From the sequence record OR352945.1: a stretch of DNA of 64,000 nt; one strand, written 5' to 3'. Positions 9,853-16,779 of this stretch are shown here, piece by piece (position 1 is the first letter of the stretch; every line of letters starts with the position of its first letter). The notes under the pieces are model-generated. The model ran no database searches. It had not been told where the DNA came from and saw nothing but the letters and a program-made list of their open reading frames with translations. Both the position numbers and the translations under genes were made by a program. This DNA comes from Escherichia phage AV115.

Positions 9853-10355
9853 TTAGAAATATTTTTTGTATGAATTGATTACATTTTGGTCTACATCATT
9901 ATCAATTTGTGCGACAAGATAAGAACTGATTTCAACTTCCTGAGGAGCTGCTTGAACTAAATCAGAGTTCAGATATTCACGAATCCAAGGATAAGGATGT
10001 TTGGTCGGAGCATCAGTAATTGGACACGGCAAACCACACTGTTTCATACGAGACACAGTCAAGTAATCAACAAAAGCACACATACTCTGTGTATTGATAC
10101 CTGGACATGTACCGTCTTTAAAGAGGTGTGCAGCCCATTCCTTCTCTTGACTATTTACTTCCATAAAAATGTCAACTGCTTCTTGTTCACATTCTTTAGC
10201 AATTTGAACCCACTCATCACCATCAGTACCGGATTGAAGTTGACGGATAATGTACTGAGTACCCTTGAGATGGAGTTGTTCGTCACGAGCAATGAACTTC
10301 ATAATCTTTGCATTGCCTTCCATAATTTCCATATTCTTATGGAAATTAAATGTAC
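9853..10355 (-). CDS. nrdB: ribonucleotide reductase small subunit NrdB, exon 2
   Basis: C-terminal R2 sequence (FNFHKNMEIMEGNAK...); joins exon 1 to give conserved Cys codon TGT. Confidence 0.85.
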
Positions 10356-10947
10356 CGTTATGTTCGATTGAGCTCGCTAATTCTCAACCCGTTCTCTTAT
10401 GAACTGCTGCATATTACTATGCAGACCAGACTATATCACAATCCCGGAGGGATTCTCCCCATTTCGAGTCGCTTGACCCTACGTCCGAAGACTAGTCGTT
10501 GAACCTTGCTTTGCAATTGTCGCCGTGCCATCGTTTATATGTCGATGGTGATAAATCTTTCTTTTCACAATATGGACAATTCAATTGAATTCTATTTGGA
10601 TTTAATTTGCATCTGTCATTATGTTTTAGATAAAACCCAGGACCTTTACCAATGTGACCGCAGAAATCACATGTGATTTCTTTTTGTGCAGGATGGGTTC
10701 CGTTCTTAACCATTTCTAATGTTTTTGCTGATGTTCTTCCATCAGAATCTTTAGGTATAGGCCCGTTAGCATCCATCCAAATTTTTCTATAATTCAATTG
10801 TGCATCCTCTTAAAAGTATAATCATATTTATTTTATAATATACTAATTAAAGGTGCAAGCAAAACCTTGGCTGCTAGTTTTCCTATAAAGGACTTTCCAG
10901 CAATTAAAGGAGTTTTCGATAAACGTTACCGTTTAAAGGCGCATTTT
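10356..10947 (-). mobile_element. group I intron in nrdB (about 592 nt; boundaries approximate)
   Basis: Interrupts conserved R2 sequence; 3-prime end GAACATAACG and core blocks shared with td intron. Confidence 0.8.
10492..10797 (-). CDS. intron-encoded HNH/zinc-finger endonuclease remnant (I-TevIII-like, 101 aa)
   Basis: ORF inside nrdB intron with CxxC...H...C and CxxC...HGDNC motifs; short, so probably truncated. Confidence 0.6.
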   Translation of the reverse strand: MNYRKIWMDANGPIPKDSDGRTSAKTLEMVKNGTHPAQKEITCDFCGHIGKGPGFYLKHNDRCKLNPNRIQLNCPYCEKKDLSPSTYKRWHGDNCKARFND

Positions 10948-11623
10948 ACGCAAAAGATACATAAAAACGAATAGCTTCCAATGCATTGATGACATGCAAA
11001 CAAAGATAAAGAGATTTCATTAGGTCTCGTTTAGCTTCGGTCTCTTGTTTAATAGCTCGGTTTAAACGAAGGTCGGCATCAGGAGATTCTTTAGCTTGTT
11101 CTACAAATTCTTTAGCATTTTCCCAATTACGAGTCTTGACTAGAACATCATCATAATATTTACCTATTGATTCAGCTCGTTTCATGATTGCTTCGTCTAA
11201 TACAATCTCATCAAATACTTTGGATGGATCGGTATAAAGATTTCGCATAATATGAGTATACGAACGAGAGTGAATAGTTTCACTGAATGTCCATGTTGCA
11301 ACCCACGTATCTAATGAAGGGTCGGAAAGCAGTGCCATAAGTACCGCAGATGGGGCCCTGCCTTGGATAGAATCTAATAATGATTGATACTTAAGGTTGT
11401 TTGTAAAGATGTCCTGTTGGAACTGAGGAAGCTTATTGAACTGGGCCGAATCCAGCATCAGGTTTACTTCTTCTGGTCGCCAGAAAAACGACAATTGCTT
11501 TTCAATAAGTTCTTCAAAAACTTTATGTCGCTGAATATCATAACGTGCGAGGCCAAGACCAGAACCAAAGAACATTGGTTCATTCAAAACATCGACTTGT
11601 TGTGTGTTAAAAACTGTACTCAT
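10948..11623 (-). CDS. nrdB: ribonucleotide reductase small subunit NrdB, exon 1
   Basis: N-terminal R2 sequence ending ...RFYVSFA then in-frame stop at exon/intron junction. Confidence 0.85.
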
Positions 11624-11678: not shown

Positions 11679-13943
11679 TTAAAGCTTACAAGCAGAACAA
11701 TCTTCAGCTTTAGGTGTTTCTAATTCATAGTCATCTGTACCTGACCCATCACGAGTGTTATGATAGTAGAGGTTTTTTCCGCCAAAGTACCAGAAGTAAA
11801 GCAGATCGTCAAGCATTACTGACATTGGCACTTTACCTTTCTCAAATACTGCAGGGTCATAGTAAGTATTAGCAGAAGCAGATTGGCACACCCATTTCAA
11901 CATGATAGCAACTTGGGTCAAATAAGGTTTATTACCTTTCTTAGCAAGTTTCCACGCGTAGTCGTAAAGACTCATGTTATGTTCTATATTAGGAACAACC
12001 TGTCGGAAGTTGCCTTCTTTAGATTCTTTAATACTTACAGGTCCACGAGGTGGTTCTATACCATTTGTGCTATTTGAGACTTGACTGCTTGACTCACAAG
12101 GCATGAGTGCAGACAACGTTGAGTTACGAATTCCATGTTCTTTGAGTTCAGCTCGAAGTTCTTCCCAGTCACAGACATAGTTCGGGGCTGCGATTTGGTC
12201 AATCTTTTTATTGTACCAGTCGATAGGTAATTCGCCTCTAGACCATTTAGTGTCTGAATAATACTCACAAGGTCCTTTTTCTTTGGCGAGTTTGATTGAT
12301 GCTTTGATAAGGCCATATTGCAATCTCTCGAACAATTCATGGGTCAAATCGTTAGCGTCTTCATATGAAGCAAAGTTAGAAGCTAACCATGCAGCATAGT
12401 TCGTCACACCAACACCGAGATTTCGACGCTTTTTAGCTTTTAAAGCTTCTGGAACCGGATAATCTTGATAGTCTAACAGGTTATCAAGTGCACGTACTTG
12501 TACTTCAGCAAGTTCATTAATTTTATCTTGGTCTTGCCAATCAAATTTATCTAATACAAAAGCAGATAATGTGCATAAACCAATTTCAGCATCAGGACCA
12601 TTCACATCATTAGTTGGAATAGCGATTTCACAACATAAGTTACTCTGACGAATTGGAGCTTTTTCACGAATAAACGGAGTGTAGTTATTCGTGTTATCAA
12701 CAAACTGTGGATAAATTCGAGCAGTGCCAGAACGTTCAGTCATGAACAATTCAAAGAGTTCTAGTGCTTTGATTCTTTTCTTTCTGATTGTTGGGTCTTT
12801 TTCAGCTTTCTCATAAAGCTCACGGAATTTATCTTGATCTTCAAAGAACGAGTAGTATAGTTCACCTGACATTTCGTGAGGGCTAAATAAAGTAATATAA
12901 TCATTTTTACCAAGGCGTTCCATCATAAGGTCATTAATCTGAATTCCGTAGTCCATATGTCGAATACGGTTTTCATCCACGCCTTTGTTATTTTTCAGAA
13001 CTAATAGGTTCTCTACTTCTAAGTGCCACATCGGATAATACGCTGTAGCAGCACCACCACGAATACCACCTTGAGAACAAGATTTTACTGCAGTTTGGAA
13101 ATGTTTCCAGAATGGAATAACACCTGTATGTCGAACTTCACCCGTACCGATCTTAGAACCTTCTGCACGAAGCATACCAACGTTGATACCGATACCAGCT
13201 CGTTTAGAAATATATTCAATAATTGATGCTGAAGTTTTGTTAATAGATTTTAACGAATCACCTGCTTCAATAACTACACAACTAGAGAACTGGCGAGTTG
13301 GAGTACGAGCACCTGCCATAATTGGGGTTGGCAATGAAACTTGATGAGTAGAAACGGCATCATAAAAACGAATAATATGTTTCAAACGGTCATGAGTTTC
13401 GTCTTGGTGTAAGGCCATGCCAATAGCCATGATAGCAAACTGGGGAGTTTCATAAATCTTCCCAGTTGTTTTATCTTTAACTAGATATTTTTCTTTAAGC
13501 TGCATAGCACCAGCATAAGTCAGGTCAAAGTCTCGTTCATGTTTAATCTGTGAATCGAGATAAATGATTTCTTCTGCTGAATATTGAGACAACAGCTCAG
13601 GGTCATATTTGCCTTCATTAACACAGTAAGAAATATGGTCTATAAAAGCAGGCGGTTCAAACTGCCCATATACATCTTTACGAAGTGCAAACATTAGCCC
13701 TTTGGCGGCGACATACTGATAATCAGGTTCTTCGACAGAAATCAAGTTAGCTGCAACTTTAATACAAATCTTCTGAATATCTTTGGTGCTCATCCCGTCG
13801 ACAAGATGGGTCTTAATTTCTTCATACAATTCGTATGGGTCGATTTGTGTTCCTTCACACTGCCAAGTTAATACTTGAATAATTTTCTGTGCATCAAAAT
13901 TTTGGGATACACCTGAATTTTTCACTACTTTAAAATTATACAT
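11679..13943 (-). CDS. nrdA: ribonucleotide reductase large subunit NrdA
   Basis: 754 aa; class Ia R1 features; T4 length and synteny. Confidence 0.95.
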   Translation of the reverse strand: MYNFKVVKNSGVSQNFDAQKIIQVLTWQCEGTQIDPYELYEEIKTHLVDGMSTKDIQKICIKVAANLISVEEPDYQYVAAKGLMFALRKDVYGQFEPPAFIDHISYCVNEGKYDPELLSQYSAEEIIYLDSQIKHERDFDLTYAGAMQLKEKYLVKDKTTGKIYETPQFAIMAIGMALHQDETHDRLKHIIRFYDAVSTHQVSLPTPIMAGARTPTRQFSSCVVIEAGDSLKSINKTSASIIEYISKRAGIGINVGMLRAEGSKIGTGEVRHTGVIPFWKHFQTAVKSCSQGGIRGGAATAYYPMWHLEVENLLVLKNNKGVDENRIRHMDYGIQINDLMMERLGKNDYITLFSPHEMSGELYYSFFEDQDKFRELYEKAEKDPTIRKKRIKALELFELFMTERSGTARIYPQFVDNTNNYTPFIREKAPIRQSNLCCEIAIPTNDVNGPDAEIGLCTLSAFVLDKFDWQDQDKINELAEVQVRALDNLLDYQDYPVPEALKAKKRRNLGVGVTNYAAWLASNFASYEDANDLTHELFERLQYGLIKASIKLAKEKGPCEYYSDTKWSRGELPIDWYNKKIDQIAAPNYVCDWEELRAELKEHGIRNSTLSALMPCESSSQVSNSTNGIEPPRGPVSIKESKEGNFRQVVPNIEHNMSLYDYAWKLAKKGNKPYLTQVAIMLKWVCQSASANTYYDPAVFEKGKVPMSVMLDDLLYFWYFGGKNLYYHNTRDGSGTDDYELETPKAEDCSACKL

Positions 13944-14583
13944 AATAATTCCATGTTGGATAATTTGATGATTTTAGACGGCGTCTAACCGTTTGGGTGC
14001 TCATAGATAAAATTATTGACGCTTCATTTAATGTATCATATATTACGTCGTTTATAATTACTTTCTTTGCAAATGGATTCTTAGCTCCTATCATAGCGTT
14101 AGAAATAGCTTGCTTAGTTGATTCTTTTAATGGGACTCCTTTAGAAATTTTTGTTTTAATTTTTATATTGTATTGTCCGCGTTTTTTACCTAATAAAGAA
14201 TTTCGTATCTTTTCTTTAGTCTCTTCAGATTTAACATGTCCTAGTTTGGAACGAGATATTTTATCTTTTGTTTTTTGGTCTAATTTTCGCCCTTTAAGCA
14301 AATCAACCATTTTTGCTCTAGCCCATCCAAATTCTTTATTATTTCTAGAACTCATTAAATTAACCGCGGTTGCTAAACCTAAATTGTTCGGATATATTTT
14401 TAATAAAAGAAGATGAGCCAAATAATGTTCTGAATATGTTAATTTAACTAGATTGTATGACTCATTGGTGCCACCTAAACATTTTGGGATTATATGATGC
14501 CATTCACCATCGATATCTTCAAAATTTCTTTCTTTATTTACTAAGTTTTTATATATTTTTAAATAATCCATAGTATAATCCAC
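13936..14583 (-). CDS. free-standing HNH homing endonuclease (215 aa)
   Basis: HHIIPKCLGGTNESYNLVKLTYSEHYLAH motif; 3-prime end overlaps nrdA start by 8 nt. Confidence 0.75.
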   Translation of the reverse strand: MDYTMDYLKIYKNLVNKERNFEDIDGEWHHIIPKCLGGTNESYNLVKLTYSEHYLAHLLLLKIYPNNLGLATAVNLMSSRNNKEFGWARAKMVDLLKGRKLDQKTKDKISRSKLGHVKSEETKEKIRNSLLGKKRGQYNIKIKTKISKGVPLKESTKQAISNAMIGAKNPFAKKVIINDVIYDTLNEASIILSMSTQTVRRRLKSSNYPTWNYYV

Positions 14584-14902: not shown

Positions 14903-15214
14903 TTATACCGCCATTTTAGCTTTGATAGCTGGATGTGATTCGTAATTTTTAAGAACGAAATCAGAATGTGTCATCGTTCCGGTAACCCAGTCCATTTGGA
15001 TTTTTGTAGGCCAATTCTCAAAATTACTAGGCCAATTAATTTCAAGAGAACATAACTCTTTAGGTTCATGACGAAGAACTTCTTTGCATTGTTCTACATG
15101 ATTGCTGTAGATATGCGTGTTGCCGCCTGAGAACACTAAATCACCTGGGATAAGGTTACACATCTTCGCTACAATATGTGTCAAGGCAGCGTACGAGGCG
15201 ATGTTGAACGGTAG
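14903..15214 (-). CDS. td: thymidylate synthase, exon 2
   Basis: Begins LPFNIASYA..., matching recalled T4 td after the intron. Confidence 0.9.
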   Translation of the reverse strand, partial: LPFNIASYAALTHIVAKMCNLIPGDLVFSGGNTHIYSNHVEQCKEVLRHEPKELCSLEINWPSNFENWPTKIQMDWVTGTMTHSDFVLKNYESHPAIKAKMAV

Positions 15215-16230
15215 CATTATGTTCAGATAAGGTCGTTAATCTTATCCCGGAATTATATCCAGCTGCATGTCACCATGCAGAGCAGACTATATCTCCAACT
15301 TGTTAAAGCAAGTTGTCTATCGTTTCGAGTCACTTGACCCTACTCCCTAAAGGGATAGTCGTTAGGCATTTATGTAGAACCAATTCCACTTATCAGATTT
15401 TACACGGTAAGTAACTAATCCTGATGAAATTTCAAAATGTCTAGCCGCATCGGCTGCACATTCAAAAATAATCCCATCGCATGAAATCTTTTTGATGTTA
15501 GCTGGCTTTTTGCCTTTCATCTTTTCAGATAGTTTAGTTTTAGTTTTTTCTGAATGTTTGTGATTAAAGAACGGGTTATTTTCACCTGAACGTTTTCGGC
15601 ACTTTCCACAAGTATCGGCCGAAGATGGTATGCGAACACCGCATTTACAAAACTTGTGGTTTTCTGGATTCCATCGGCCATTTTTACTTCCGTGTTTACC
15701 ATAAAGAGCTTTCCGACCATCAGGACCAAGCTTAAGCATCTTAGCTTTAACAGTTTCAGCTCGTTTCTTAGCAATTTCTTCTTTTAATGGATGATTTGAA
15801 AGCACATCGCCAAAAGACGCATCAGCAATATTATATCCATTAATTTTAGAATTTAGCTCTTTAATCCAAAAATTTTCTCGTTCAATAATCAAATCTTTCT
15901 CATATGGAATTTCTTCCAGTATAGAGCATTCAAAAACATTACCATGTTTATTAAAAGACCTTTGAAATTTTATAGAAGAGTGAACACCGTTTTCAAGGTC
16001 TTTAAAATGTCTCTTCCATCTTTTCTCAAAATCTTTAGCACTTCCAACATACACTTTACCGTTTAAAGTGTTTTTAATCTGATAAATTCCGCTTTTCATA
16101 AACACCTCTTTTTATATAGAAGTATTTATTAAAGGGTAGTCCTACAATTTAGCACGGGATTGTCTACTAGAGAGGTCCCCCGTTTAGATAGATTACAAGT
16201 ATAAGTCACCTTATACCTAGGCCTAAATTA
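15215..16230 (-). mobile_element. group I intron in td (1016 nt)
   Basis: 5-prime end TAATTTAGGCCTAGGTATAAGGTGACTTATAC and 3-prime end GAACATAATG on the minus strand; length equals recalled T4 td intron. Confidence 0.9.
15362..16099 (-). CDS. GIY-YIG homing endonuclease I-TevI
   Basis: 245 aa from ATG 16097-16099; MKSGIYQIKNTLNGKVYVGSAKDFEKRWKRH closely matches recalled I-TevI. Confidence 0.9.
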   Translation of the reverse strand: MKSGIYQIKNTLNGKVYVGSAKDFEKRWKRHFKDLENGVHSSIKFQRSFNKHGNVFECSILEEIPYEKDLIIERENFWIKELNSKINGYNIADASFGDVLSNHPLKEEIAKKRAETVKAKMLKLGPDGRKALYGKHGSKNGRWNPENHKFCKCGVRIPSSADTCGKCRKRSGENNPFFNHKHSEKTKTKLSEKMKGKKPANIKKISCDGIIFECAADAARHFEISSGLVTYRVKSDKWNWFYINA

Positions 16231-16779
16231 ACCTAAGAAAACATCTACACTGCGTTGATACCATTGTAAATCAAGATGACCATTACGCACATTGAACTGA
16301 TAGAACATATGGCAAGGAGGAAGAGCCATTTGATTTATTTCAGCCGGATTCCAGGCAGAAACAATTTGACGACGATCAGTTGGTAATTTTTTAATACGGT
16401 CGATTGTTTCAACTAATTGGTCTACACCACCAAAATCACGCCATTGCTTACCATAAATAGGACCAAGTTCGCCGCTATGATATCCAAGGTCTTTTGCCTG
16501 ATTTTCATAGTTGTCGTCCCAAATAGTTTTACCTTGAATAAGACTACCATGAGTACGAATACGCAAATCATTAACATTGGTAGAACCAGACATGAACCAC
16601 AGTAACTCGGCAATACAAGCTTTCCATGCTAATTTCTTAGTTGTTACTGCAGGAAATCCTTTAGTAAGGTCCCAACGTAATTTAGTTCCGAACAGGGCAA
16701 TAGTGCCGGTACCTGTACGGTCGTCTGTTTCGTAGCCATTTTCTAAGATATCTTTAATCAGGTATTGGTATTGTTTCAT
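16231..16779 (-). CDS. td: thymidylate synthase, exon 1
   Basis: Ends ...SVDVFLG; in-frame TAA is the first three intron nucleotides. Confidence 0.9.

Follow-up and report, generated by a model that had tools for sequence, protein, structure and literature searches.

The region studied here is very probably the td gene of a Mosigvirus-type T4-like phage, interrupted by a group I intron that carries the gene for the homing endonuclease I-TevI and that would operate by a T4-like mechanism. It lies in a 64,000-nt stretch of DNA from Escherichia phage AV115 (sequence record OR352945.1), referred to below as the window. For T4, splicing, the activity of the endonuclease and its late expression are established (PMC2988022, PMC8565351, PMC5009752); they are attributed to the window intron on the strength of its near-identity to the T4 element.

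Escherichia phage AV116, a Mosigvirus, shares the td region at 99.9% identity, and AV109 carries an intron that matches at 100%; with such matches, chance is no concern for the observation itself. The intron is also 99.7% identical to that of G2469. The surroundings of td are those found in AV116: frd lies upstream, and downstream come a small DUF5496 ORF, a free-standing homing endonuclease and nrdA.

Exon–intron structure of td

The gene is encoded on the minus strand and consists of the following parts:

16231–16779, minus strand: td (thymidylate synthase) exon 1, 549 nt, 183 codons, C-terminal DVFLG (from the ORF list and the sequence)
16228–16230, minus strand: in-frame UAA stop, intron nt 1–3 (from the sequence)
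15215–16230, minus strand: group I intron, U1 to terminal G, 1016 nt (from the sequence and relatives)
14903–15214, minus strand: td exon 2, 103 codons plus stop, N-terminal LPFNIASYA; its first three nucleotides, CUA, form P10 with intron nt 6–8

Exon 1 ends with the codons GAT GTT TTC TTA GGT (DVFLG, minus-strand reading). The intron starts with UAAUUUAGGCCUAGGU and ends with AACAUAAUG, its last bases being AUAAUG, which places at the 3′ splice site (15215) the terminal G characteristic of group I introns. Exon 2 opens at 15214 with CTA CCG TTC AAC and has its stop at 14903. In silico splicing produces the ligated junction ...UUCUUAGGU|CUACCGUUC... (GGU|CUA) and an 861-nt coding sequence for a full-length thymidylate synthase of 286 aa. 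Once the intron is removed, the ThyA/Td domain is uninterrupted and complete: the spliced protein matches the Pfam profile PF00303 (Thymidylat_synt) over positions 1–266 of 266, with 322.7 bits and E = 1.9e-96.

The spliced td aligns with the intronless td of Mosigvirus ST0 without gaps (846 of 861 nt identical; 98.4% nucleotide identity for exon 1). Because the bases flanking both boundaries differ (T at intron nt 1 and C at exon 2 nt 1; T at the end of exon 1 and G at the end of the intron) and the ST0 alignment is gapless, the junction is fixed and cannot slide. The original prediction, which had ended exon 1 at DVFLG, assigned TAA to intron nt 1–3 and resumed exon 2 at LPFNIASYA, proved right to the base, and the intron length of exactly 1016 nt (16230 to 15215) given there was borne out; the suggested alignment with T4 td DNA was run and brought up no alternative splice sites. 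That T4 has an intron of the same length is correct for the original record, M12742, and for T6, but the intron in the T4 genome record is 1017 nt long. UAA occupies nt 1–3 in 18 of 18 T4-site td introns, retrieved with a search pattern that itself demanded TAA, and an in-frame UAA has been described at the start of the T4 td intron (PMC8565351).

The T4 td intron (AF158101 / NC_000866; original record M12742) lies in the same gene and at the same insertion site after DVFLG, with the same GGU|CUA junction and UAA at nt 1–3. Like the window intron, it comprises helices P1–P9.2 with P7.1/P7.2, an ORF in P6a and the same ribosome-binding-site (RBS) hairpin. The nucleotide identity between the window and T4 is distributed as follows:

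Exon 1: 79%
Intron overall: 90%
Intron 5′ of the ORF: 123/132 nt
I-TevI ORF: 649/738 nt (88%)
Intron 3′ of the ORF stop: 145/147 nt
Exon 2: about 70%

The spliced Td is 82% identical to T4 Td at the amino acid level. The host being a Mosigvirus, its exons are far more diverged from T4 than the intron is. The one base that the window intron lacks in comparison with the T4 genome record falls in a non-core stretch, GGAC(U)U, after P6a.

The ribozyme core

The secondary structure, comprising helices P1, P2, P3, P4, P5, P6, P6a, P7, P7.1, P7.2, P8, P9, P9.1, P9.2 and P10, was drawn by hand from published work on T4, from the way Rfam aligns the ORF-less relatives and by inspection. The core is encoded in two halves:

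16139–16215, minus strand: 5′ half, with the P2 hairpin, the P3 5′ strand (16192–16187), the P4/P5 hairpins and the 5′ strands of P6 and P6a (P6a 16146–16139); helices assigned by hand
15215–15380, minus strand: 3′ half, with the P6a 3′ strand (15380–15373), P6, the P7 5′ strand (15360–15355), P7.1, P7.2, the P3 3′ strand (15321–15316), P8, the P7 3′ strand (15290–15285), P9, P9.1, P9.2 and the terminal G (15215); identified by Rfam Intron_gpI (36 bits), T4 identity and covariation

The P3–P9 core has the P3/P7 pseudoknot topology of group I introns (RF00028) and is of the IA type with P7.1/P7.2. In the window intron, 80 of the 80 assigned pairs are standard, although such pair counts lean toward the drawing, given how it was made. 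The catalytic core is thus not disrupted, and identification of the element as the td group I intron is supported. The 3′ strand of P6a is formed by the last ORF codons (GUUCUACA, 15380–15373), the arrangement described for T4 (PMC2988022).

Covariation was analyzed in an alignment of 13 distinct td introns from which the ORF had been cut out; these are close kin, with a mean column identity of 94%. Paired cells amount to 99.1% in the drawn register and to 31–43% when the 3′ partners are slid by 1–3 columns. Ten pairs show two-sided changes, compared with 0–1 in the slid controls and a mean of 3.3 in shuffles, and they are located in P6a, P7.2, P8, P9.2 and P10. P3, P4, P5, P6, P7 and P9.1 are invariant and the same as in T4. 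Two local variants of the drawing were discarded: a U-A pair in P7.1 clashed with P7 and was dropped, so that P7.1 was kept at 3 bp, and the P7.2 register GAGU/ACUC was rejected in favor of GGGUC/GACUC, which is backed by a U-A to C-G covariation. The few core differences from T4, namely a P7.1 tetraloop of UUUA instead of UUUG, one P9.2 pair that is A-U in the window and G.U in T4, and A54>G in J4/5, where G is common to HP3.2 and others, are harmless.

The Rfam check proposed with the original prediction gave a divided answer. At the gathering threshold of the Intron_gpI model (50 bits), no match was found in the whole window; a permissive scan recovered only the 3′ half of the window intron, at 36.1–36.2 bits, below that threshold. 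The natural ORF-less relatives, in contrast, score above 50 bits (77.1 for GRNsp7 and 70.3 for HP3.2) with the same helices, and their Rfam alignment gives a P1–P9 layout that agrees with the drawing in P1–P6. The likely reason why the window intron is missed is the ORF of about 750 nt in the P6a loop, too long an insertion for the model to bridge. We read the sub-threshold score as a limit of the model for ORF-bearing introns, not as a failure of the feature, and reject the lack of a gathering-level match as an argument against the intron, in view of the permissive match to the 3′ half and the passing scores of the ORF-less relatives. From the near-identity to T4, we infer that the window intron would self-splice in a guanosine-dependent manner.

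The I-TevI gene, its target site and its expression

Three features on the minus strand relate to the endonuclease:

15362–16099, minus strand: I-TevI orthologue ORF, 245 codons plus stop, with GIY-YIG nuclease, linker with zinc finger and DNA-binding domain
16253–16257, minus strand: CAACG, the I-TevI cleavage motif (CNNNG), at exon positions −27 to −23 (read from the sequence)
16098–16129, minus strand: hairpin hiding the I-TevI Shine-Dalgarno sequence (GAGG) and AUG, 12-bp stem and 8-nt loop (predicted fold)

The ORF runs from an ATG at 16099 to a stop at 15364–15362. (The program-made ORF list gave 247 aa, starting from a GTG upstream of the I-TevI ATG.) It was originally described as a 245-aa ORF near-identical to I-TevI; it is indeed a full-length I-TevI of 245 aa, but with 218 of 245 residues identical to T4 (89%), "near-identical" was somewhat generous. 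The 27 substitutions avoid the conserved motifs. The GIY-YIG domain matches PF01541 with 61.8 bits against a cut-off of 22.6 and PDB entries 1mk0/1ln0 with E of about 2e-57, and it retains every one of the catalytic residues Y6, Y17, R27, H31, H40, E75 and N90. The I-TevI zinc finger, NUMOD3 and I-TevI DNA-binding domain families are also matched above their Pfam cut-offs (PF22635, 63.4 bits; PF07460, 24.7 bits; PF20987, 108.1 bits), residues 130–245 match PDB 1i3j (E = 5e-66) and 1t2t is matched as well. The linker with its Cys4 zinc finger, in which C151, C153, C164 and C167 are retained, is followed by the C-terminal domain with a minor-groove helix and a helix-turn-helix.

Among the substitutions are C39V, T95S and Q158P, at positions that were singled out when the cleavage preference of I-TevI was subjected to directed evolution (PMC5009752); the same paper notes that T95S occurs naturally in homologues from td introns, for which CAACG is still the predicted site. 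The cognate homing site is found in the intronless td of ST0, where CAACG lies at −27 to −23 from GGT|CTG, in keeping with the cleavage distance of 23/25 nt and the CAACG motif reported for I-TevI (PMC2988022, PMC5009752). By its near-identity to the T4 enzyme, this I-TevI would be expected to cleave site-specifically and to promote homing.

The predicted 32-nt RBS hairpin has a folding energy of −16.2 kcal/mol (z = −6.4); in shape and energy it matches the T4 hairpin, from which its sequence differs in the loop and by one A-U to G.U change. Its 5′ arm lies within a late-promoter/operator-like stretch, AAUAAAUA, that is unchanged relative to T4. The hairpin, late promoter and operator have been described for T4, and the variants of phage TuIa are marked in the I-TevI hairpin figure of that review of T4 mobile elements (PMC2988022). 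A scan for sigma-70 promoters and terminators, which is not pertinent to T4 late promoters, returned sites no commoner than in shuffles.

Relatives and mobility of the intron

Phages AV109, AV116, G2469 and TH12, together with TuIa (AY262157), show essentially no intron difference from the window, and the 60 nt across the 5′ splice site are identical in 11 public genomes. The TuIa td intron is identical at 1014 of 1016 positions, and the exon −4 A, the guide and the CUA that opens exon 2 also agree with the window, but TuIa exon 1 is more diverged (164/189 nt), so that the same intron is found in another td background. Other relatives have a shortened intron: ORF-deleted introns were found in G28 (intron length 445 nt), Escherichia phage HP3.2 (320 nt) and Salmonella phage GRNsp7 (254 nt). 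The last two share the core and the splice sites with the window intron but have lost I-TevI, whereas the window retains the full ORF. Elsewhere in the window, the nrdB intron contains a truncated endonuclease ORF.

An uninterrupted td junction is present in about 147 phage records and the intron in about 200. When IMG/VR viral contigs were scanned for the I-TevI protein, 10 loci emerged, only 3 of them T4-site td introns and the rest distant GIY-YIG genes; the td intron diversity was drawn instead from the annotated phage collection. In Mosigvirus G2285, the exons are 94% identical to those of the window, yet the ORF is of the T4 type (87%) and the start of exon 2 is Tequatrovirus-like. Conversely, in Tequatrovirus RPN226, exon 2 is only 72% identical, yet the ORF is of the window type (99%). 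Intron and exon histories are discordant across Mosigvirus and Tequatrovirus, as homing predicts; this supports homing indirectly and agrees with what has been described for the td intron in T-even phages (PMC2988022).

The phage td gene is non-essential in thyA+ hosts. With td dispensable, the element might be a decaying relic in which the ribozyme splices inefficiently or I-TevI is inactive, and the ORF losses in G28, HP3.2 and GRNsp7, the shortened nrdB endonuclease and the 27 I-TevI substitutions relative to T4 could be taken as signs of such decay. We find this very hard to credit. All core pairs are intact and the 147-nt 3′ core after the ORF is as in T4 at all but two positions; the ORF has its full length and still encodes all of the catalytic and zinc-binding residues; the substitutions spare the conserved motifs, T95S being a known natural variant of the active type (PMC5009752); and the identical intron is retained in several independently isolated phages.

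Pairing of the exons with the guide sequence

Recognition of the 5′ splice site involves two adjoining segments:

16231–16237, minus strand: P1 exon strand CUUAGGU (−7 to −1), pairing with intron nt 9–15, with U−1 in a U.G pair at the 5′ splice site
16216–16225, minus strand: internal guide sequence, nt 6–8 UAG (P10 strand) and nt 9–15 GCCUAGG (P1 strand)

In the window, P1 consists of seven standard pairs, and across the 13 sequences every P1 cell (100%) is paired; the U−1.G9 pair at the 5′ splice site, expected of a group I P1 and guide, is found in 13 of 13 td introns. The register drawn here matches that of T4, in which −7 pairs with +15 (PMC8565351). The T4 guide is GAG (nt 6–8) followed by GCCUGAG, and that of the window UAG followed by GCCUAGG. 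The window therefore differs from T4 by G>A at exon −4, GA>AG at intron nt 13/14 and G>U at intron nt 6, with the following effects on P1:

Pair −4 : U12: G.U in T4, A-U in the window
Pair −5 : nt 13: U.G in T4, U-A in the window
Pair −6 : nt 14: U-A in T4, U.G in the window

The original prediction suggested that the exon 1 end and the guide differ from T4 in a compensatory way. The differences are real, and pairing is kept or improved, but none of them is two-sided. In P1, variation among the 13 td introns is one-sided: three pairs vary while their partners U12, U−5 and U−6 are invariant. With 0 two-sided changes in 7 pairs and with mixed haplotypes, a strict compensatory change in P1 is rejected. 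Exon −4 A occurs with guide AG in the window, AV116, TH12, Lv5cm and RPN226 and with guide GG in LF82-4 and HMGUkp2, and exon −4 G occurs with guide GA in T4, T6, U5 and others, with GG in one IMG/VR contig and a Proteus phage, and with AG in HP3.2. Exon and guide states thus assort freely.

The third position of P10 (intron nt 6 : exon 2 +3) is A-U in the window and an A.G mismatch in T4. Across the 13 introns it is G.U in 4, U-A in 4, A-U in 1 and unpaired in 4 (paired in 9 of 13); T4 itself is among the unpaired cases, as are two introns whose 5′ part is of the window type. Covariation of intron nt 6 with exon 2 +3 is suggestive, but weak. In a T4 reporter assay, a mismatch at this position gave the highest activity (PMC8565351). 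Because the position is unpaired in 4 of 13 introns and the T4 mismatch is the most active state, we read no selection into the nt 6 change.

These differences raise the question of adaptive co-evolution, that is, of selection having changed exon −4, nt 13/14 and nt 6 jointly and retuned P1 and P10 for Mosigvirus exons. At positions −4 to −6, the window has two Watson-Crick pairs and one wobble, compared with one and two in T4; its P10 has three pairs, compared with two plus the A.G mismatch; and the two substitutions nearest the junction that distinguish the window from ST0, G>A at exon −4 and at exon 2 +3, both turn a G.U into an A-U pair, opposite U12 and U6, respectively. Mutagenesis in T4, in which the Watson-Crick states would be −4A, −5C and −6U, showed that these positions modulate the splicing readout (PMC8565351). 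Even so, joint selection seems unlikely to us. Since U12, U−5 and U−6 are invariant, each P1 change is pairing-neutral on its own; the free assortment of exon and guide states and the behavior of the P10 third position, both in the alignment and in the T4 assay, also speak against it.

A further point against co-evolution is that exon −4 would be inherited with the intron through co-conversion, whether selected or not. This position sits between the I-TevI cut site (−23/−25) and the intron and would therefore be copied from the donor at homing. Judged from linkage rather than from a reconstructed event, the simplest reading of exon −4 A is that it marks the donor, having come along in the obligatory co-conversion tract, rather than that it arose as a compensatory mutation, and co-conversion probably explains the association of exon −4 with the intron lineage without selection. 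The P1/P10 differences from T4 are pair-preserving single-sided transitions, that is, drift.

A related possibility is that the TuIa-type intron lineage is a functionally retuned T4 td element, in both P1/P10 kinetics and I-TevI target range. A steadier P1 and a 3-bp P10 might then alter splicing kinetics, and C39V, T95S and Q158P might broaden the target range, aiding homing across Mosigvirus and Tequatrovirus. Such retuning appears quite improbable and is not required: CAACG remains the predicted cleavage motif, and T95S has already been reported in natural homologues (PMC5009752).

Model of splicing and homing

By analogy with T4, the td pre-mRNA would fold into helices P1–P10, and the guide (intron nt 9–15) would pair with the last seven exon nucleotides to present the U.G pair at the 5′ splice site. 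Exogenous guanosine would attack at this site, and the freed 3′-OH of exon 1 would then attack just past the terminal G (15215), where the short P10 would hold exon 2. Ligation of GGU to CUA would restore the 286-aa thymidylate synthase. Ribosomes on unspliced RNA would halt at the UAA at nt 1–3 and so be kept out of the ribozyme core. Late synthesis of I-TevI would depend on transcripts that start inside the hairpin that otherwise masks its ribosome-binding site. The enzyme would bind around the insertion site of an intronless td and cut at CAACG, 23/25 nt upstream, and repair off the intron-bearing copy would spread the intron together with the adjoining exon bases.

Implications

Databases and the literature already contain the element, including this very sequence variant (TuIa, AY262157); the TuIa-type variant was sequenced as early as 2004. 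The importance of the element beyond correct annotation is small, and it is nothing new in kind. In many public records, td is entered as two separate "thymidylate synthase" CDSs, or the exon/intron boundaries are called undeterminable; the exact boundaries given here would permit a proper joined td CDS. The comparative data illustrate three known points about this intron family: P1 drifts by switching between G.U and A-U pairs, group I introns with an ORF elude the Rfam model, and the td intron moves among T-even genera independently of its host gene.

Exon substitutions facing the td guide sequence

We compared the td exons of the window with the intronless allele of the Mosigvirus ST0. The two differences nearest to the insertion point are G-to-A changes at exon position -4 (16234) and at position +3 of exon 2 (15212), both of which are silent and lie in leucine codons; the next closest differences are found only at -115 and +15. 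In the internal guide sequence of the window intron, U12 faces exon position -4 and U6 faces exon 2 position +3.

The I-TevI orthologue encoded in the intron (15362-16099, minus strand) carries the substitutions C39V, T95S and Q158P. Directed evolution of T4 I-TevI yielded C39R, T95S and Q158R among the changes that alter cleavage preference (PMC5009752). The window variant is altered at the same three positions, 39, 95 and 158, with T95S identical in both; T95S has already been recorded in natural homologues (PMC5009752).

td introns in related phages and their annotation

Three phages, G28, HP3.2 and GRNsp7, contain natural td introns of 445, 320 and 254 nt, respectively, in which the I-TevI ORF is largely or wholly gone and the core is retained. 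In the GRNsp7 intron, a short new hairpin (CAGC AGUA GCUG) takes the place of P6a.

The td gene of Aeromonas phage Aes508 is interrupted elsewhere than at the T4 site (intron in locus L020, about 1757-2890). This intron follows ...WSQR, 21 nt 5' of the T4 insertion point and near the I-TevI cut, and has its own endonuclease ORF and a guide sequence unlike that of the T4-site td intron; it too opens with an in-frame TAA.

In many deposited genomes, td is divided into two CDSs, each labelled 'thymidylate synthase', or its exon/intron boundaries are declared undeterminable; examples among the public genomes matching the window are MK327933, MK327934 and OR352946. The annotated exon 2 CDS usually starts at an AUG made by the last three bases of the intron.

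A second group I intron and a free-standing endonuclease

The nrdB gene of the window is also split by a group I intron, the second one besides that in td.

Features of the nrdB and nrdA regions of the window
9853-10332, minus strand: nrdB exon 2 ORF
10333-10948, minus strand: nrdB group I intron (Rfam match 10407-10644)
10492-10797: nrdB intron ORF, 101 codons, listed with a TTG start
10946-11623, minus strand: nrdB exon 1 ORF
13936-14583, minus strand: free-standing homing endonuclease ORF, 215 aa, flanked by a DUF5496 ORF and nrdA

The Intron_gpI match within the nrdB intron scores 35.9 bits, under the Rfam gathering score. The intron ORF encodes an endonuclease of the I-TevIII type that carries an internal deletion: its residues 21-101 align to the PHROG profile, which is 269 positions long, at positions 189-269. 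The defective I-TevIII of T4 is truncated differently.

The free-standing ORF contains an HNH-like motif, EWHHIIPKCLGG, and a NUMOD3 motif, and matches phrog_655 'homing endonuclease' with E = 7e-46; its match to the I-TevI-type DNA-binding domain falls just under threshold. The Mosigvirus AV116, which closely matches the window around td, likewise carries this ORF, whereas intronless ST0 lacks it, its small DUF5496 ORF being followed 88 nt later by nrdA.
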